From NCBI GenBank assembly GCA_963724325.1, contig CAVRUH010000007.1, positions 192,001 through 256,000 on the forward strand: 64,000 bases of DNA, in the 5' to 3' direction. Both the position numbers and the translations under genes were made by a program. Source of the DNA: Waddliaceae bacterium. GTDB taxonomy: Bacteria; Chlamydiota; Chlamydiia; Chlamydiales; Waddliaceae. The notes beneath the pieces are model-generated. The model was given only the letters and a program-made list of their open reading frames with translations, was not told the DNA's origin and ran no database searches. Positions 31,583-45,084 of this stretch are shown one piece after another; positions within the stretch are counted from its first letter, which is position 1, and the number at the start of each line of letters is the position of its first letter.

Positions 31583-34500
31583 ATGATTCCGAACTTGGTG
31601 CCTGTTGCTACATCTAGAGTTAAGCCTCTTATTGAGGTGGGTGGGAAGAAAAAGAATGAAGTGCATATTGCTTCACCTGTATCGCATCGCTCCAGCCTTC
31701 TATCGTCTTTTCTGGATTTACATCTCATTTATCCACCATTCCCTTTTGAAATAAAAAATCAGGCCATTCTCGATAGGCTCGATTCCCTGCCGGGAAGGAA
31801 ATTGCTCGATTGGGTTATCGAAAAAATAGGAAGTGCAGATGTTCTCGAATACCATTTTGTTGGCAGTGCGATCAACGATGCTTGCAAAAATGATTTTTTC
31901 CTAGATTGCCTTGCTCTGCTTAATTTGCCTGCTGAGATGAAAGAGGATATTGCCAAACTGATCGTTAAACGTACAAACGAGTTTAAGGATGTCGATTATA
32001 GAATAAGGGTCGATTCTAATGTTGATCTATTTCAACTTGCCGAGACCTTGAATAAGACGACCTTGATTCAAGCGGTGTATCGTGCTGAGGATAGAAGTTT
32101 ATTAATTATTCCTAGTGAACAAATGGATATTAAAGTTGATATTTGGGTCTACACAGGCGAAATATCCGGCTATGCTTTTTGTACAGATAACCTTCGAATC
32201 AACCTCAAGACTTACAGGATCGAAAGCGATAATCCTTGGGGTTGGTGGAGGGGTCAGGTTTTTCGTGTAATCGATTTGACGAAAAGCGGCAATCGACATC
32301 TCTTCATGAGGCTTGTTGATAAGGAAGTGAACCGTTATACAACGACGAAAGGGACAGAGTTTTTCTTTTATGACCTATGGGATCCAAACGAATATAAACG
32401 GGTTGAGGAGGTATCGGTACAACAGCTTTTCAAAAGATTGACTGTTCAACGCATATGCCTAGAGCATTGTAAAGACCAGTCTCAGTTGCTGTTTCTAATA
32501 AATCAAACCTCCCAAGTAAATGGAAAAATAACGTCGAACCGCTTTCTAAGTACATTTTTTGATGCTTTAAATTCCAAAAATAAGGTGGCCCCTTATTTAC
32601 ATGCGATTGTTAGATTGATAGCCGCAGTGGCTCTGCGTGAAAGATGGAAAAAGCTTCGTGTTAAATTGCTGAAGCATGAAGACGAATGGTATCTACGCAT
32701 GCGCCTTGAGGGTCAAGATTTATTACTCAAATTTCAACCCTATATTGATTTATCTTTGTTATCCGGCTTGGATGAAAAGACTTGGGAGTATTTGAAAAAA
32801 GTGATGCATTCTCTTTGGTTGGACGGGATTGAATTGCGTCCCGTCGACAAAAACTTCCGTTCAGAAATCAATAAATATATAGATAACGATCTTTATAAAA
32901 AGTTAAAGCAGCTGTTTTTACATGGTGTTAAGAGTGTTTCAGTAGATAAATTTATATCATCTCAACAGAAAACCCTTGCTGAATTTTTGATTCAGAATTG
33001 TACTGAGCCTGCCGAACTCCTTTGGCAGGGTTTGGAAGTATTGACAAATTATGATCAACCCGAGATCAAACGGAAACTATGTTGGGAGGCTGTGGAGAAT
33101 TGTTTGCAATATCATGGATATAATCAGGCTGCCGAGCTAGTTAGGGGGCTGCGCATGGAAAATATAGAGCCGGAGTGCGGCTATGAATTATTCTTTAACA
33201 AGCTGCTAGACGGTAATTGTAATGAATCTGTTCTTCAAACATGTAATCCATATGGTTTTGAGCTTGCTTGGGGGGAACTTGCAAAGGCAGATTCGAGAAG
33301 TCGTAAGCAAAAATTGGTTGAATTGGTGGATGCATCAGAGGCGTCTGATGAGGAATATCTTAGGATTCGCGATTTGACAAAAGTTAAGTCAGTGAAGCTT
33401 TCCGAGGCACGGCTGACATCAATCATGGATTCGCAAGAGTTAGCAGTAGTTTGTCCATTGATTGATAGGCATGATAGAATTGAATACAAAAATTTGCAAT
33501 ATTGTGAAAAGTTAAGTGGTATCATTTTGGGGGCGATTGCTTCATTGGGATATTCTTCACTCACACCTACATGGATTGCAGCTTTTTTGAAATCGGGTAG
33601 GTTCATTGGAGAAAAAAAAGATGTTTGTTCGTTTCTGGTCAAGCAGGATATTGACACAGATGTAAAATCTGAGTTGCTGCGAATGTCTGGAATTCATGAT
33701 AAAGACCTTTGGAGACATATTGTAGGGGAATATTTACGAAATAAAGGCGAATGGCCGAATGATTTCACTATTGGTGGTATGCCGTCGGAAACATTAAGCG
33801 CCTGGTGCACGATTATTCAAAATGCGGAGAAAACCGATAAGATTATACCAATTATCTCAAAGTTAGATGATGAATATGGTCTTAAAAAAGTTGTTCTATT
33901 ACATCTTTTGAAGGGATGGGGGAAGAAGCAAATCCATCATTCTGTGTTAACTCTTCTTGATACAACAAAAGATAAGCTTCCCTGGGAAGAGATTGTCAAA
34001 GAGGCAAATAGTCCTCTCGACATTCTGACGAATCTAAAGGAAGCTAATAGAGGTGTGTTTAATGTTTTTCCGGCCCTAATGAGTGTTGTAAATCCTAAAA
34101 ATGCTGAATTTCTTTTTTCGTGGTGGATTACAAAAAAAATGGATCAACTTGAGCATGAGCAGGCTTTGAGATGCTGTGGAGATAAATGGATCAAAGAATG
34201 CCTTATGTTAAATCCTAAGAAGGCTCTCACATTTTTAAAGAAAATCGCTTGTCCTAAAACGATCACATTTGTGATAGAGGTAGCTGGTGCAAGGGATAAT
34301 ATTGATAAAGATTTATTTGAGTTACTTTTGAGGGCATCATTTGATGTAAATGATCACGGTAAAACAACAGATTATGTGCTTGATAACTCACCAGCAAAGA
34401 CCATTCAAAATGTTGAACTCGCTGCACAGGTAGTTATGTATGCCGATCAATTATTGCGAAATCCACAGGGTAACCTGCATGCTATCGGTAGATTATGGGC

Positions 34501-37500
34501 TCTTATTCCAAAAATCTTTATTCCAAAAGATATGCCTCCGCTTGCACCTTCTCATCGATTGCTGGCCTTATCTAAAGCAGGGTATATGCCGATTGTGATT
34601 ATGATGCTTCACGAAAGCAATTCTATGGAAAGAAAAAAAGTTGAGCCGAAACTCTATTGTGAAATCGTGCGCAAACTGCAAGACTCTGAACGGAAAATTG
34701 AGCTCCTCTCAGGTTGTCGGGTTTCATCACCAGCTCTTCAGGACATTTGGTATAATATTGCATTTGCTGGAGAGCCGCGCAGGCCCATTCGCTGTAAATT
34801 AAATTTGGTAACTATTGGCCATCAAGTTGGCATTGCTGCAGATGTCGTTCAATCTTTTGCAGTAGACGTGCTTCAAAACATCCATTTCAATACAGATATT
34901 GAATTGAGCCTTATTGATTCAGTTTATCAATTGCTCGATGTCATTAAGACCCCTGAAATATTTAAACTTTGGGAGGCCCTGGAAAAGACAGGCAAAATTT
35001 CGAAAGGAAAATTATGGAGTTCGGCTCTTTCCATTATCAAAAATAGTCAGAATGCTCCTCAATCTGCATTAGTTTACTGGTTAGCTGATAACATAAATCA
35101 TGGTAGTTCAGAAGAATTTTTTGTATTGATGCAAACTTTATTACCCAAATTACCTGAGGAATTGACTCACAAAATCGCTAATGGATTCCTTAAAGCTCTC
35201 GCTGTATCAGGGCATGCCCAAGCCAAAGAGCTCTTTTGGAAGTACACAAAAGGAACCTCTGTTACTATGGAGGAATTAGAGGCCCTTGACCCAAATTACG
35301 AGCAAACTAAATTGCTTTTGAATGCGATGATTGACCGCTGTAAACCCAATTCAGAAAATGTTAAAAGTATCTTGCTTGTTTGCCGCATATATGCTGCTTG
35401 CTTTACTGAACATCGATACTGGGCCGATGTTCAGAATATGACACGACAGTTGGTTATTCTGCTTATTAAAATTCTACCTTTTGCCCAAGATGAGAATATA
35501 ACTGTTATACTTGATTATGTAGCTTTTCTGTCAACACATGCCTCTTTTCACAAAATGCAAGATGCTGAGCAAATACTTCTCGATAATTTTGAATTTCTTT
35601 CCCATAATTGTCTGTCATTGATAACTACGGCAATTTATGCAGAAAAGTACATGTGGAATAAGCGTTGGGATTTTATTAAACTTCTTATTGATTCAGGTGT
35701 AGAAACAAAAATATTTTTGGCTGTGGTTTTAATTGAGCGAGAACCTGAAACGATTATTCGATTAGATGGAGCCATGTTTCAAAGGTTGTTTGGGATCACT
35801 CTTCTTAAAGAAAAATGTCTTAAAATTATCGATAAGGCTTTAAATCCAAAGCAACAATATATATTTCAACTTATCGTATTTAGGGAAGAACTCAAAATGC
35901 AAAAAGAAAACTCTTTGCCATTTCTTTTAATCTATATACAAAAACTTATTTTTCTGGTGAAGGATGATTCAGTTTTACCTCTTAAACCTTTTCTTCCGCC
36001 TTTGCTGCATTGCATATTTCAGGCCAAAGACGGGAGGGACCTCTTAATATTCGACAAGCTTAAGCAAGGAATTATTGGGAGACAGAATTCTATTGAAACT
36101 TCATTGTTAATGCTAGTAGAAGCCAAGAAGACAGATAATGAAAATATCCGTATTGAAATTTTTGAATATGTTTGTACGACGCTAGAAAGAGAGCGTATTA
36201 CCAAGCCTGAAGACTATAACCTTCTAATTGATATTTACAAAGTCTTAGAGCTGGCATCGATTCTAGTGCATACACATGACTCATTATGTAAATTTATTAA
36301 ACGCCTAAGTAAGGCTAGGAGGAAAATTGAAACATCCCCTTACAATGAAATAGAGATCCAGCGGTTGTTTGTTGCGACTCTTATGCTGAATAGCGAATTT
36401 CATAGATTCTGTCCTTCTATGAAACTTCAGGTACGATTCATTGTGGATATTATTATGGAGTTGAAGAATTATAAAACCCAGTCCACCGTAGATTTCTTGC
36501 AGCATATTATGTTTATTACTGCTGATCATGTGCTCTATCAATTTCCAGATGCATTTTCACTTTGCAATGAGATATTTCTAGAAGCATATTTAAGCTATTA
36601 TAGCACTGATCTGCTAAAACCACGCCTTAGATATCTCTTTAAGCATCTCGTTATTCAGATTCCCAAAGATAGGGCAGCACGCGAAATTAGCATTTGTAGA
36701 TTTAAAGTTGTTTTATCAACAATAACGCGTATCCTTCAGTTGCATCCTCAAATCCTTCCAGACTTAATTGAATATATTCATCAGGATATCGTCACACTGT
36801 ACAAAGAACATGAAGTGGATCCCTGGGATAGGCTCATTGCCATCTTATTTAAGGAATGTTCAGAGCAGGGGAAGGACGACTCGTATAAATCTCTTGCCTA
36901 TCTCCTTCAAACGCGTCCCTCAGGCGTGGTCCGAGTTGAAAGATTTCCGTTGGATTGCCAAGAAATAGTCCGAAACATACCTTTAATAGTTAATTGTGAA
37001 GAAAGAGTACATCATCTTTCTCGAAAAAAAAATGTTGATGTATTTGAGGAACTGAATTCCATATGGGATGAATTCCTCGATACCTTACCTGAAATGGTGA
37101 CTTCATATTTAATGAAAAGATCAATCAGATTTATACGTGAATTATTGAAAATTGTTTCAGAGCAAATTACCTCTAATTCAAAATCTGCTATAGAATTTCT
37201 TTTTAGGATCAGTAGCTCAGTCCAAACACAAAGGACTGATTATGCCTTTGGAGTAATGATGTCCCTAGCAGAAATATATAGGCCTGAAATCACTGGCGTT
37301 CTTTCTTGGCATGGCAAATTAAACCTTGAAGAGGCCAATTTTGTCATAGCGGAATCACAATGCCAGCTAATGAAATATGTGCCCTGGCCACAATATAAAT
37401 TTCCTGTACCATTATTTAAAGTGTTCATCGATTTTTACTTCAAACAATTTCTTCAAGAAAAACATCATGCTCCTGCATATATTGCAGACAGTGTTCGTGT

Positions 37501-38149
37501 CAAATTTACCTATGTTTATATAGGTGCTCTAAATGGCATGCTCATGAATTATAAAGAGCAAAAAGATAAACCGAAGTTTATGAGTAATTTGGGTAAGCTT
37601 GAACAAGTGCGTGGTCTTATAAGCAAAATAAAAATAAAAGTCGTTAATCATTTTGATTTACTTTTGCTTTTAACTTGTAATCATATAGAGTTTTTAAAAG
37701 ACAAGGAATTGGCAGAATTTATTTTAGATTTAATCTATCATAATTTTTCGAATTTTCATCCAACGATAAGCTCTGATATTATTTGTCAAAATCTTGCAAA
37801 ATTCGCAGTCCTTGCCTTTATGTACGGTCCCGATAAAGATACAGATAAGATTCCTAATAAATTTCAAAGAGCTGCATTTTTTAAGTCGGACCAAATTTCT
37901 CAAAAGTCCATACCCTTAGGAAAAGCTCCTGATATTAGCGCCGAATGTATGATCGCAGGAGCTTCTCTGCGGGTGATCACAAATGGTAAATTTGATGATG
38001 ATACGAGTCTTGAAATCAGGAGAGCAAGTTGTCAGAAAATTGAATGGATACTCCAAGATCTAAAAATTGACGAAATGCAAACAAGCGACTGGTATCGATG
38101 TTGGAAAGCTAAATTCAACACCATCAAAGATGCCCTTAAGGGCACCTGA
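31583..38149 (+). CDS. Giant 2188-aa protein; N-terminal nucleotidyltransferase-like motifs followed by a predicted helical solenoid
   Basis: Uninterrupted 6.5-kb ORF with HFVGS...KDVDYR...VDIWV near the N-terminus. Confidence 0.75.
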   Translation: MIPNLVPVATSRVKPLIEVGGKKKNEVHIASPVSHRSSLLSSFLDLHLIYPPFPFEIKNQAILDRLDSLPGRKLLDWVIEKIGSADVLEYHFVGSAINDACKNDFFLDCLALLNLPAEMKEDIAKLIVKRTNEFKDVDYRIRVDSNVDLFQLAETLNKTTLIQAVYRAEDRSLLIIPSEQMDIKVDIWVYTGEISGYAFCTDNLRINLKTYRIESDNPWGWWRGQVFRVIDLTKSGNRHLFMRLVDKEVNRYTTTKGTEFFFYDLWDPNEYKRVEEVSVQQLFKRLTVQRICLEHCKDQSQLLFLINQTSQVNGKITSNRFLSTFFDALNSKNKVAPYLHAIVRLIAAVALRERWKKLRVKLLKHEDEWYLRMRLEGQDLLLKFQPYIDLSLLSGLDEKTWEYLKKVMHSLWLDGIELRPVDKNFRSEINKYIDNDLYKKLKQLFLHGVKSVSVDKFISSQQKTLAEFLIQNCTEPAELLWQGLEVLTNYDQPEIKRKLCWEAVENCLQYHGYNQAAELVRGLRMENIEPECGYELFFNKLLDGNCNESVLQTCNPYGFELAWGELAKADSRSRKQKLVELVDASEASDEEYLRIRDLTKVKSVKLSEARLTSIMDSQELAVVCPLIDRHDRIEYKNLQYCEKLSGIILGAIASLGYSSLTPTWIAAFLKSGRFIGEKKDVCSFLVKQDIDTDVKSELLRMSGIHDKDLWRHIVGEYLRNKGEWPNDFTIGGMPSETLSAWCTIIQNAEKTDKIIPIISKLDDEYGLKKVVLLHLLKGWGKKQIHHSVLTLLDTTKDKLPWEEIVKEANSPLDILTNLKEANRGVFNVFPALMSVVNPKNAEFLFSWWITKKMDQLEHEQALRCCGDKWIKECLMLNPKKALTFLKKIACPKTITFVIEVAGARDNIDKDLFELLLRASFDVNDHGKTTDYVLDNSPAKTIQNVELAAQVVMYADQLLRNPQGNLHAIGRLWALIPKIFIPKDMPPLAPSHRLLALSKAGYMPIVIMMLHESNSMERKKVEPKLYCEIVRKLQDSERKIELLSGCRVSSPALQDIWYNIAFAGEPRRPIRCKLNLVTIGHQVGIAADVVQSFAVDVLQNIHFNTDIELSLIDSVYQLLDVIKTPEIFKLWEALEKTGKISKGKLWSSALSIIKNSQNAPQSALVYWLADNINHGSSEEFFVLMQTLLPKLPEELTHKIANGFLKALAVSGHAQAKELFWKYTKGTSVTMEELEALDPNYEQTKLLLNAMIDRCKPNSENVKSILLVCRIYAACFTEHRYWADVQNMTRQLVILLIKILPFAQDENITVILDYVAFLSTHASFHKMQDAEQILLDNFEFLSHNCLSLITTAIYAEKYMWNKRWDFIKLLIDSGVETKIFLAVVLIEREPETIIRLDGAMFQRLFGITLLKEKCLKIIDKALNPKQQYIFQLIVFREELKMQKENSLPFLLIYIQKLIFLVKDDSVLPLKPFLPPLLHCIFQAKDGRDLLIFDKLKQGIIGRQNSIETSLLMLVEAKKTDNENIRIEIFEYVCTTLERERITKPEDYNLLIDIYKVLELASILVHTHDSLCKFIKRLSKARRKIETSPYNEIEIQRLFVATLMLNSEFHRFCPSMKLQVRFIVDIIMELKNYKTQSTVDFLQHIMFITADHVLYQFPDAFSLCNEIFLEAYLSYYSTDLLKPRLRYLFKHLVIQIPKDRAAREISICRFKVVLSTITRILQLHPQILPDLIEYIHQDIVTLYKEHEVDPWDRLIAILFKECSEQGKDDSYKSLAYLLQTRPSGVVRVERFPLDCQEIVRNIPLIVNCEERVHHLSRKKNVDVFEELNSIWDEFLDTLPEMVTSYLMKRSIRFIRELLKIVSEQITSNSKSAIEFLFRISSSVQTQRTDYAFGVMMSLAEIYRPEITGVLSWHGKLNLEEANFVIAESQCQLMKYVPWPQYKFPVPLFKVFIDFYFKQFLQEKHHAPAYIADSVRVKFTYVYIGALNGMLMNYKEQKDKPKFMSNLGKLEQVRGLISKIKIKVVNHFDLLLLLTCNHIEFLKDKELAEFILDLIYHNFSNFHPTISSDIICQNLAKFAVLAFMYGPDKDTDKIPNKFQRAAFFKSDQISQKSIPLGKAPDISAECMIAGASLRVITNGKFDDDTSLEIRRASCQKIEWILQDLKIDEMQTSDWYRCWKAKFNTIKDALKGT

Positions 38150-38167: not shown

Positions 38168-38244
38168 TTTTCTTCCTATCCTTCATATCCTGCCGCTTGC
38201 GATCATGCGTATCCTGTTATTCCCTTCTTATCCTTCGTATCCTG
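38168..38244. repeat. REP-like repeat, left part (one full arm plus half of the interrupted arm)
   Basis: cttcctatccttcatatcctgccgcttgcgatcatgcgtatcctgtt matches the hairpin arms at 24.5-24.8 kb. Confidence 0.9.
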
Positions 38245-39832
38245 CCCCATCACTACTCAATTGGCAATTTTCATAAAGCATTTTCGGTGATATGCAATGC
38301 ATGATTTTTACCTCGCCTTTGGTTATGATAATTTTTTCAACTATTAAACGCACTAGTTTTTGCTTCTCATTGAATGGCAAATCTGGAGCCGATTTTTTAA
38401 CTCTTTCTAAAATACTTTCAAAAGCATGCTCCCAACCGGATCCTATTTCTTTCATAAGTTTTAAATTTAATCGTTCCTTTTTCTCGTTCTCAAGTTCGCC
38501 TCTTCTTTTTTCTAACCCCTGGGCTCTTTGACTTAGAGAAGTTAAATCTAATAAACCACTTTGATATGCATCTAAAAGTCGCTCTCGTTCTTTTATAAGC
38601 TTTTCTAATTCTTTTCTCATCGAAATTTCCTGCCTCTCGATTTCCTCGATATTTCCGCTTTCCTTTTCTCTTCTTTTAAACTCTTCCTGCAACATAAATG
38701 GATTTTGAAGCATTTGAATTATTTCATTATAGACCAAATCATCGAGCTCATCCTGCTGTATATATCCATTAGAACATTTTGGTATTTTATTATCCGAATG
38801 GCTTCGACAATGATAATAATTTTTACTTATTCCCTTATATCTTCTCATTCTTTTATAAAATTGACAACCACATTCGCCGCACGTGATTAATCCTTGAAGC
38901 AAGGAAGGTTCTTTGGTATTTCTTAAGGCTAATTCTTTATTTTTATTTATATATTCCTGTGCTGTTTCAAAATCACTTTCACTAATTATAATTGGAATAT
39001 TTATCTCGTACCAAGAGTCTTCATTAGTTTTTTTTCGTGGATTTTTTGGCTTCAGCCGTCTTAAGCCTTTATAATGCCTTATTTTATCTATACCCTCATA
39101 CTTTTCTGATTTACCATAGGCTGCAGTGCCTATATAAGCCTTATTTTTTAATATCCCTAAGATGGTTGCTGGAAACCAATAGGAATTTCCTTTTGGGCTT
39201 TTAATTTGGACCTCGCTCAACCTTCGACAAATTCCATTTAATGAAAGCCTCTCATGAACATATAAATAAAATATTTTTCTTACAACATTCGCGTCTGTTT
39301 CAACGATTTCAATCACCGTTTGACGTTCATTTTTTATCCTCTGATAGCCATATGGTAGCTTAGGAAGAATAGCTGGATCTCCGCTTTTTGCTTTATGAAT
39401 AGTACCTCGACGAGATCGATCTAATATTAATGCTCTTTCATATTCAGCAAAAATCCCCTGAAAATGAGTAAACATTATTGCTTCAGGAGTGTCACCTTGA
39501 GGAACATTTCTAATGAAAAGAACCTTCACTCCACATCGTCGAAATTCATCTAACAAAATAAGTTGATGAGGATAATTTCTGGCTAACCTATCTGGTGCAT
39601 AGATCAAAATCGCGTCGACAGACTCTGTTCGTATCAAATCTCGTAAATCATCTAAAGCAGGTCTTTGAAGACTTTGACCACTTATACCGTTATCAAGAAA
39701 AAGCCACGTTTCTGGAATTTGATATCCTTCTTTGAGTCCAAATTCTCGAAGAACCAATTCTTGACTTTCGATCGTTTCATCTTCTTTTTGCTTCTGTGAG
39801 GAGACTCTGGCATATATTGCGGCTTTCTTCAT
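38228..39832 (-). CDS. Large serine recombinase (resolvase, recombinase and zinc-ribbon domains)
   Basis: YARVSS catalytic Ser, DRLAR, PYGY, CGECG...YYHC...C zinc ribbon and coiled coil; GGAG RBS. Confidence 0.95.
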   Translation of the reverse strand: MKKAAIYARVSSQKQKEDETIESQELVLREFGLKEGYQIPETWLFLDNGISGQSLQRPALDDLRDLIRTESVDAILIYAPDRLARNYPHQLILLDEFRRCGVKVLFIRNVPQGDTPEAIMFTHFQGIFAEYERALILDRSRRGTIHKAKSGDPAILPKLPYGYQRIKNERQTVIEIVETDANVVRKIFYLYVHERLSLNGICRRLSEVQIKSPKGNSYWFPATILGILKNKAYIGTAAYGKSEKYEGIDKIRHYKGLRRLKPKNPRKKTNEDSWYEINIPIIISESDFETAQEYINKNKELALRNTKEPSLLQGLITCGECGCQFYKRMRRYKGISKNYYHCRSHSDNKIPKCSNGYIQQDELDDLVYNEIIQMLQNPFMLQEEFKRREKESGNIEEIERQEISMRKELEKLIKERERLLDAYQSGLLDLTSLSQRAQGLEKRRGELENEKKERLNLKLMKEIGSGWEHAFESILERVKKSAPDLPFNEKQKLVRLIVEKIIITKGEVKIMHCISPKMLYENCQLSSDGAGYEG

Positions 39833-40068
39833 GATGGAGCTCCTGATTGATGGATGACCGAATTGATATTGTGCTGTTGAGCAATATCGCTAAGCCCTTG
39901 ATTAATTTTGCTCTTTGATTCCTCTGAGGGTGATATTCGAGTACAATTTTTTGGACTTTGATGCATTTTGACAATGTTCTGAGCCTTGTTTCGAGAAGAA
40001 TATTTACCGATTGTACTTCTATCAAACATTTTCTCAAAACAAATTTTGCCAATTGAGTATTGATGGGG
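38245..40068 (-). mobile_element. Minimal large-serine-recombinase mobile element with 23-bp terminal IRs, flanked by a duplicated TG
   Basis: IRs ccccatcactactcaattggcaa (38245-38267) and ttgccaattgagtattgatgggg (40046-40068) match at 22/23. TG at 38243-44 and 40069-70. Removing the element restores atcc-TG-ccgcttgcgatc. Confidence 0.92.
39777..39980 (-). CDS. Small ORF upstream of and overlapping the recombinase start (possible accessory or directionality factor); start uncertain
   Basis: The frame of ORF 39777-40088 inside the element reads KIVLEYHPQRNQRAKLIKGLAILL...HEESRNIC. Its track start lies outside the IR. Confidence 0.4.
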   Translation of the reverse strand, partial: RTLSKCIKVQKIVLEYHPQRNQRAKLIKGLAILLNSTISIRSSINQELHHEESRNICQSLLTEAKRR

Positions 40069-40158
40069 TGCCGCTTGCGATCATGCATATCCTGTTATTC
40101 CCTAGGGAAACAGGATACGCATGATCGCAAGCGGCAGGATATGGAGGATAGGAAGAAA
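40069..40158. repeat. REP-like repeat, right part (remainder of the interrupted arm plus an inverted arm)
   Basis: tgccgcttgcgatcatgcatatcctgttattccct followed by agggaaacaggatacgcatgatcgcaagcggcaggatatggaggataggaagaaa. Confidence 0.9.
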
Positions 40159-43674: not shown

Positions 43675-45012
43675 CTATTTTGTCAAAATTGGAAATCGAC
43701 TTGCAAAATACAATGGGTAGCTGTGGACACTATTGCGTTGATCGATTTTAAATGGACGGCCACTCATGATCGTTCGATATTTTGATGAGTATTTTTCCAC
43801 AAATTTTTGTAGGCTTGCAGCATGGGTGACATTACCTGATTTCACTTCTATGGGCAAAATATCGCCGTCAATATTCTCTAACAAATTCCACTTCAGAGCG
43901 TCCGTCTTGCCAGGTATATAGTTCCTTGCAGTTCGTACTGAAAAATTCTTGTGCAATAAAATTCTCTGCAAAATAGCCTTTATAGGTTCCATATTGATAT
44001 TCTAAAATAGTCTTAGGGGCAAGACCGCTTAAAGCCCCAAGCATCCCAACATCAAAAACAAATAATTTAAAACGACCTTCCTCAGTATAAGCGGAAAGGG
44101 GATGTTCAGCGGTTTGGATGATTGGTATTTTGAATATTAGTCCAGCATTTTCAAGCCAATCAAAAACATTTGCAAGCCTGCTGTAGCGATCTATTCCTTC
44201 AATACAATGCCATAAATTGATATCTTTTTGATGAACCATCAACAGTGCTTGCCAATTGATTCGGGATGGAACGCCAAATTCGATCGATATGCATGGCATT
44301 GACTTTTCCGGAGTGTTTAGCAATATCGGCATAATAATCAGAGAGCAATTGAGTTTGTTTTTCACGAACTTTTTCGAAAGCTACAAATAAATTTTCTTTA
44401 TTATCAATAAAGATCTGAACAGCTTCGGGCAAACCCCCGACAATAAAATACCATTTCAAACGTTCCCAAATGCGATCATGCACTAAGAGTTGGGATAACA
44501 GTGTCTAGTCTCGCAGGATTCAATTAAATCAGCGGATAAATTCTCATCGATAGCTCGCAAAAATTCGACAAAAGTTAAGTGGATATAAATAACCTGTTTG
44601 AATTTTTCCAACGGGATACGATTCATGATTGAGTCAAACCCCAAGTAGCGATCCGGCACAACAAAGTGCTAGTTCGGGCATGTCTTCTTGAAAATATTTC
44701 AAGCTTGTTAAGGCTCTTGGGATAGCTTGAATTTCATCAAATATGACCAGATCATTTTTCACATCAATTGGGTCTGTTCTGATGAAAGCTGAGTTGATCG
44801 ATAAGATGATGTGGATCCAAATTCGATTCAAATATCTTGGCAAGTTCAGGCTCTTTCTCAAAATTAAAATAGTGTATATTTGGGAATTCGTTCGCGCCAA
44901 AATGTTTGAGTAAGTAGGTTTTTCCGCATTGGCGAACTCCACGTAGCATCAATGGCTTTTTGTGACCACTTGCTTTCCATTCTTGCAGACTTTGATAAAA
45001 TTGTCTCTTCAT
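43675..45012 (-). pseudogene. AAA_14/DUF4143 ATP-binding protein, multiply frameshifted
   Basis: Five fragments carrying GVRQCGKT, IFDEIQ, GGLPEAV, FDVGML/ENFIAQE and PIEVKSG in the expected order. Confidence 0.9.
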
Positions 45013-45013
45013 A

Positions 45014-45084
45014 CTTGCAATTATCGTCAATTTTGACGGAAATTGCAAGCAAAAATCGTCAATTTATGACGGAAATTGCAAGCA
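45014..45084. promoter_or_regulatory. Duplicated dyad motif immediately upstream of the AAA pseudogene (operator-like)
   Basis: atcgtcaattt(a)tgacggaaattgcaagca occurs twice. The first copy forms the dyad cttgcaatt..cgtcaa/ttgacg..aattgcaag. Confidence 0.5.

Follow-up and report, generated by a model that had tools for sequence, protein, structure and literature searches.

In a small mobile element of a Waddliaceae bacterium, the attachment (att) site falls within the 3' end of the element's large serine recombinase gene, and joining the element's ends into a circle extends that gene in frame by 79 codons. We see an even chance that this circle-only tail biases the enzyme towards insertion, and that read-through in the circle suppresses a second gene, orfA, which overlaps the tail in another frame. 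The DNA analyzed, here called the window, is a stretch of 64,000 nucleotides.

The element, which is of insertion sequence size, lies on the reverse strand at 38243 to 40070, both 2-bp cores included, and the excised circle rebuilt by joining its ends at the core has 1,826 bp. Its ends are fixed at a TG core, at 38243 to 38244 on the recombinase 3' side, where a codon boundary falls at the core end, and at 40069 to 40070 on the leader side. They are set by seven copies in the genome (G000), which are 99.8 to 100% identical, have identical cores, and differ in their flanks. Next to the cores are the terminal inverted repeats that make up the attP arms (I3; 23 nt, 96%), one at 38245 to 38267, within the last recombinase codons, and one at 40046 to 40068, at the leader end. 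Every copy in this genome is inserted at one site of a REP-like palindromic repeat, parts of which flank the window copy at 40071 to 40158 on the leader side (I1, I2) and at 38169 to 38242 on the recombinase-end side (D1, D2, I1). The empty-site 22-mer has 144 matches in the genome at 2 mismatches and 191 at 3. A search of Rfam with the repeat gave only subthreshold hairpin matches, and no sense-strand terminator-like site was found within the element. Three copies lie within 6 kb of each other (G000:C1:24024-29734); the last two of them are inverted, 66 bp apart, and have three common substitutions that are missing from the other five copies. In the neighborhood of the window copy, an ORF of 2,188 aa without a Pfam match (31583 to 38149, forward strand) ends just short of the target repeat, and several short ORFs at 43675 to 45048 (reverse strand) resemble what we take to be pieces of one frameshifted gene for an ATP-binding protein.

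In its integrated form, the recombinase ORF (38228 to 39832, reverse strand) encodes 534 aa, and 530 of its codons are internal to the element. Three Pfam families, PF00239, PF07508, and PF13408, match above the cut-off, all within these 530 codons; they are the only families found, and DUF4368 is not among them. PF00239 (111 bits, residues 4 to 152) marks the N-terminal resolvase catalytic domain; Y7, R9, and S11 are invariant in 117 recombinase sequences, and the zinc-ribbon cysteines C318, C321, C342, and C353 are also invariant. Helices 395 to 424 and 430 to 484 of the structure model correspond to the inserted coiled coil that accompanies PF07508 and PF13408. The best fold matches of the model are serine integrase structures, some of them with a directionality factor (RDF). 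In the predicted integrated enzyme, the last strand spans residues 507 to 512, and residues 515 to 534 are disordered.

There is no stop codon for the recombinase inside the element. The ORF crosses the inverted repeat, ends its internal part with ...CQLSSDGA, and takes GYEG and a stop from the target repeat (38228 to 38242, reverse strand), just as the initial annotation had read it. That annotation gave the integrated tail as four residues, which is correct for the window copy and does not hold as a fixed value. The recombinases of the seven copies have 533, 533, 533, 534, 534, 548, and 550 aa, of which 3, 3, 3, 4, 4, 18, and 20 residues, respectively, are added by the host; a fixed tail of 4 aa is rejected because these host-added tails differ. 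Integrated tails range from 0 to 38 aa across a close group of relatives, and the C-termini of 120 database homologues fall mostly at the same end point.

When the ends are joined at the core, the ORF passes through PHQYSIGKICFEK into a read-through frame of 79 codons (39829 to 40068, reverse strand), whose TGA overlaps the ATG of the recombinase, and the protein grows from 534 to 609 aa. This wrap-around ORF had been predicted from the integrated sequence and is present in the rebuilt circle. Part of the same frame, 39829 to 40029, had also been listed as a Met-started ORF (MFDRSTIGK...). Of 29 aligned ends, the window alone has Met at this codon, so this is not a separate gene; we reject the Met-started 66-aa ORF both as a gene of its own and as an RDF, since the Met is not conserved. 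As no conserved start codon opens the tail frame, read-through in the circle is the simplest route to its translation.

The frame was followed in relatives at increasing distance. The close group comprised 45 sequences, the window and 44 loci, at about 39% identity or more. Leaving out three without readable ends, one partial sequence, L115 (truncated), L138 (unresolved and not in frame), and 10 redundant ones gave 29 nonredundant elements at 39 to 64% identity, window included. Their ends were called from the inverted repeats, with no reading frame required, and were set by hand for the window, L048, L031, and L130, in which target palindromes lengthen the repeat. In all 29 rebuilt circles, a recombinase codon is complete at the end of the core and the reading frame runs on across the junction, giving tails of 19 to 99 aa (60 to 99 aa in 23, 42 to 48 aa in two, and 19 to 20 aa in four); of the other two frames, one reaches at least 60 aa in 5 of the 29 and the other in none. 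Circle length equals 2 modulo 3 in 27 of these elements. The cores are equal at both ends in 27 of the 29, and in 8 of 15 elements of a more distant clade. Long tails occur throughout the close-group tree, and short ones appear here and there; in one sister pair, tail codon 20 is TTG in one member and TAG in the other. In 18 of the 29 elements, the stop of the tail shares bases with a recombinase start codon, an ATGA overlap that is partly a consequence of the frame offset alone.

The distant clade, at 31 to 34% identity, was drawn from 52 loci at 31 to 37% identity, of which 30 gave ends and 15 were nonredundant. Fourteen of its 15 tails have 48 to 82 aa and one has 34 aa, and nine residues are invariant among 14 aligned tails. 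These tails end about 50 nt inside orfA and about 150 nt short of the recombinase start. In a further group of 2.2-kb elements, tails of 20 to 34 aa end hundreds of bases ahead of orfA. Among eight named plasmid copies, drawn from 51 records, six rebuild in frame with tails of 30 to 127 aa, one is without ends, and one (L156) is one base out of frame. Named relatives are mostly in Chlamydiota assemblies; a search of genome contigs with a single recombinase protein gave no related loci, and the recombinase alignment had no matches among viral contigs. Homologues with stops right after the junction, which the initial annotation had named as the outcome that would speak against it, were not encountered among the rebuilt relatives.

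Several other features of these relatives deserve mention. In the distant clade (L064 to L123), 13 of 15 elements have a circle length divisible by 3, and tail and recombinase share a frame with stops between them; in P0154, the tail and then the recombinase N-terminus stand in one chain. In some members of the distant clade (L065, L068, and L156), an A-run immediately precedes the inverted repeat at the recombinase end, and near it the recombinase frame is shifted in L068 and L156, through sequencing error, decay, or slippage. Distant relatives (L155, L158, L162, and others) are often found inside group II intron reverse transcriptase genes. The leader of the 2.2-kb group holds an additional gene, with the annotation CopG-family ribbon-helix-helix.

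The circle described here is an in silico reconstruction carried out across relatives. The 30-mer of the circle junction occurs 0 times in G000, which is a weak negative. Go-back joints were likewise absent from 8 Logan contig sets (of 19 listed runs), a weak negative given that contigs drop rare forms, and 0 of 100 longer proteins matching the distant-clade tail profile have recombinase sequence before the tail, also a weak negative. One contig of run X1 joins the flanks without the element at 38197/40075; it probably represents a further repeat copy that is empty.

Substitution patterns set the start of the tail apart. As uncorrected pairwise values on related, nonindependent sequences, which holds for all pN/pS ratios given here, pN/pS over codons 9 to 36, outside the inverted repeat and ahead of orfA, is 0.41 in 13 ungapped members of the distant clade, versus a column-shuffle mean of 0.94 (0 of 300 shuffles as low); in the two remaining forward frames, the ratios are 1.13 and 1.93. 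For codons 9 to 20, 28 close-group sequences give a ratio of 0.68 (6 of 200 shuffles as low) and 8 sequences of the 2.2-kb group give 0.66 (5 of 500 as low). The conserved first 20 tail codons of the window (40009 to 40068, reverse strand) encode hydrophobic residues at positions 9, 11, and 15. When 61 ends were pooled (29 close, 15 distant, and 17 more chosen by the same register), the first 19 codons were free of stops in 61 of 61, compared with 17 and 16 for the two alternative frames, and position 9 was hydrophobic in 55, position 11 in 59, and position 15 in 48; the pool leaves out L068, L094, L138, and L160 as unresolved and L066 as redundant, and keeps L156 although it is one base out of frame. 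The profiles of close and distant tails gave no significant alignment with each other. At the level of sequence, these patterns demonstrate amino-acid constraint on the tail start, that is, on its first 20 to 36 residues.

Downstream of its conserved start, the tail frame crosses orfA, a gene absent from the initial annotation and in a different frame from the tail. In the window, orfA (39777 to 39974, reverse strand) has 65 codons for amino acids and a probable TTG start, is in frame +1 to the circle junction, and overlaps both the tail frame and the recombinase 5' end. The same frame relative to the junction is seen in 27 of the 28 close elements with an identified orfA and in 14 of 15 elements of the distant clade, with 11 distinct start offsets. 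In the distant clade, orfA has a GGAGG-type site and a GTG or ATG start, and its stop is at or near the recombinase start. The conserved core has a pN/pS of 0.30 (15 sequences), and 0.46 in the distant clade; orfA is a small protein gene on the element, conserved along with the recombinase. Its product matches no Pfam or NCBIfam family and no Atlas cluster (best, 0.84), and the OrfA model is one helix, with a best fold-match Z of 5.2 and no distinctive fold. Position and conservation make OrfA a candidate excision or directionality factor. Four of the 29 close elements (the window, at 39777 to 40088 on the reverse strand, L031, L044, and L052) have an orfA frame without interruption from the junction onwards, over 96 to 107 codons.

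Over the orfA core, the distal tail has a pN/pS of 2.22 (15 sequences), and 1.54 in the distant clade. This part of the tail is without amino-acid constraint, so the 79 codons do not make up a functional domain, and the contrast between 2.22 in the tail frame and 0.30 in orfA identifies the likeness among distal tails as a shadow of orfA. The tail frame over orfA is nevertheless kept open far beyond expectation. Under a null with recombinase codon usage, it is open in 21 of 27 elements versus 1.6 expected; under the more conservative null with pooled orfA usage, it is open in 23 of 27 versus 6.0 expected, and the same synonymous resampling predicts 38.9 stops where 10 are observed. No comparable loss is seen in four control frames (observed/expected stops of 84/75, 38/38, 66/46, and 31/44). 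Selection on the distal tail thus appears to act on the passage of ribosomes and not on the sequence they translate. Two expectations of the initial annotation can be judged from these data: a read-through frame conserved and under purifying selection in relatives is found for the tail start (codons 9 to 36 and 9 to 20), and the view that so long an open frame exceeds chance is upheld by the in-frame tails of relatives, by purifying selection, and by stop depletion.

In the switch that we propose, excision would extend the recombinase by a tail encoded only in the circle, and this would act in two layers. In the first, the conserved tail start would form a strand on the last DNA-binding domain (DBD2); this strand would complete the enzyme and mask the binding site for directionality factors. 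According to the available text of PMC12286644, the majority of RDFs contribute a strand to DBD2, at a site that C-terminal extensions have been suggested to block. In the second layer, transcription in the circle would pass attP, and ribosomes finishing the recombinase would cross the orfA start in the wrong frame; in the close group, these read-through ribosomes would stop on the recombinase start codon. The outcome would be less OrfA and more recombinase in the circle. After insertion, the tail would be cut off and orfA freely translated, and if OrfA is a directionality factor, excision would become possible. The second layer is not universal, as 4 of 29 close tails (19 to 20 aa) and the whole 2.2-kb group end before orfA. 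We regard as possible, if doubtful, the reading in which one DNA stretch serves in two frames, the fused strand filling the enzyme's own RDF site and the read-through both silencing an overlapping RDF gene and restarting the recombinase. If true, it would give widespread minimal serine-recombinase insertion elements a self-sensing integrate-or-excise switch that works without a separate regulator.

Alternatively, the tail may tune activity as in Mx8, with no link to orfA: about 20 tail residues would complete the enzyme, the circle form would be more active in both directions, and the remaining frame would couple translation to the recombinase start. At least 19 open codons in all 61 pooled ends, shortest tails of about 20 aa, and, for 18 of the 29 close-group elements, a tail stop lying on a start codon are what this account predicts, and the integrated form of the Mx8 integrase is reported as less active in the available text of PMC4701971. 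Coupling, however, leaves unexplained why the distant tail covers the ribosome-binding site and start of orfA and then ends about 150 nt short of the recombinase, and the orfA frame offset is the same in close and distant groups. We consider this account rather unlikely.

Conservation might instead reside in the DNA itself, in the att arm, a promoter, AT-rich tracts, and the shadow of orfA, with the tail functionless as a protein or a ribosome track. Codons 1 to 8 are indeed the inverted repeat, with a pN/pS of 0.82 to 0.86, and the distal tail has ratios above 1. A putative sigma-70-like promoter signal matching the consensus (TTGAGA-16-TACAAT; 40010 to 40037, reverse strand) overlaps tail codons 11 to 20; such a signal is present at nt 30 to 31 in most close-group leaders and can account for part of the conservation in that group. 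In GC-rich clades, on the other hand, third positions vary while the residues stay conserved (entropy by codon position, 0.58/0.40/1.16), and the depletion of stops goes well beyond control frames under two nulls. An explanation at the DNA level only is already disfavored, and we hold it to be improbable.

The proposed switch must also be set against one acting on stability, in which the tail or the host-supplied end would determine half-life, as in gp33 of mycobacteriophage BPs. The distal tail is basic and Ser/Lys-rich, and BPs provides a precedent in the available part of PMC4557955. Against this, inspection of the four C-terminal residues in 44 rebuilt tails shows no common motif, tail ends are set by overlapping start signals, and integrated ends vary even inside one genome. 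A degron at the tail end is rejected on account of the missing motif. The initial annotation had offered a switch of directionality or stability: a state switch is plausible, with no early stops and a tail start under purifying selection, and its stability version we judge distinctly improbable. It is very improbable that the tail is a tethered excision-type factor that blocks reintegration or resolves multimers, since, even though engineered integrase-RDF fusions reverse directionality (PMC5737554, in the part available) and the tail strand resembles an orfA strand by eye, orfA is outside the read-through frame, which also rejects a natural integrase-RDF fusion, the tail and OrfA profiles give no significant alignment, and seven recent insertions argue for ready integration of the circle.

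For serine recombinase elements that lack an obvious regulator, it is an open question what decides between insertion and excision, and in the available text of PMC12286644 a block of the RDF site by C-terminal extensions is only suggested. The elements studied here offer the same enzyme with and without an extension, together with a candidate RDF, in 1.8 to 2.3 kb and with members in culturable hosts; this natural enzyme pair makes the idea directly testable. The proteins found in databases for this family carry host-encoded tails, as in the integrated state, so a screen built on cloned copies of the annotated ORF would use an enzyme without its conserved end.

Among known systems, Tn4451 with TnpX and Tn5397 with TndX use serine recombinases and many sites with a 2-bp core; these elements are larger and have junction-promoter control. 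Multi-targeting large serine recombinases (LSRs) resemble the window element in using many sites through a 2-bp core, in elements that are larger, as described in the available part of PMC10083194. The same source reports DUF4368 in 63% of the multi-targeting LSR clade of Durrant et al. (PMC10083194); the domain is absent from the window recombinase but is not universal in that clade, to which the recombinase may belong all the same. Serine integrase-RDF systems such as SPbeta have the same domain set, and their small RDFs bind DBD2, as OrfA, a candidate RDF, might; unlike the window enzyme, their integrases have one fixed C-terminus in the portions available of PMC12286644 and PMC11722253. 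The archaeal suicidal integrases of SSV1 and pTN3 also have att within the recombinase gene, but they are tyrosine enzymes whose catalytic part is split off, whereas the window recombinase keeps all three domains (PMC8371274, from the text available). In the main texts of the open-access literature searched, we found no description of an IS-sized family of this kind or of a circle-only frame over a second gene; the available part of PMC5357655 held nothing relevant.

The initial annotation compared the element to mycobacteriophages with attP in the repressor gene. In BPs, the longer repressor form has an ssrA-like tag, and integration shortens a protein's C-terminus, as in the window (PMC4557955, in the part available); there the split gene is the repressor, whereas here it is the recombinase, and inspection of 44 tails showed no ssrA-like tag. 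An att site inside an integrase gene with a swapped C-terminus is already known from Mx8, DsiB, and rumA integrative and conjugative elements (ICEs). The Mx8 integrase gene contains attP, and integration exchanges a 112-aa C-terminus for one of 13 aa, so that, as in the window element, the C-terminus is shortened (PMC4701971, in the text available). Mx8 differs as a phage with a tyrosine recombinase for which that text describes no overlapping second gene, whereas the window holds a multicopy serine element on the one-kilobase scale. In DsiB of the Dehalococcoides ssrA islands (PMC3146451) and in the streptococcal rumA ICEs (PMC4701971), a large serine recombinase gene overlaps att without a stop of its own; as in the window, the att core lies in the recombinase 3' end, and the authors suggest, in the parts available, that full function of the enzyme may be confined to the circle. 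Those systems are large islands with single-copy targets, whereas the window element targets a dispersed repeat and its tail runs over orfA and wraps around to the recombinase start. The att-inside-integrase systems, Mx8, DsiB, and the rumA ICEs, are closer precedents for the element than BPs.
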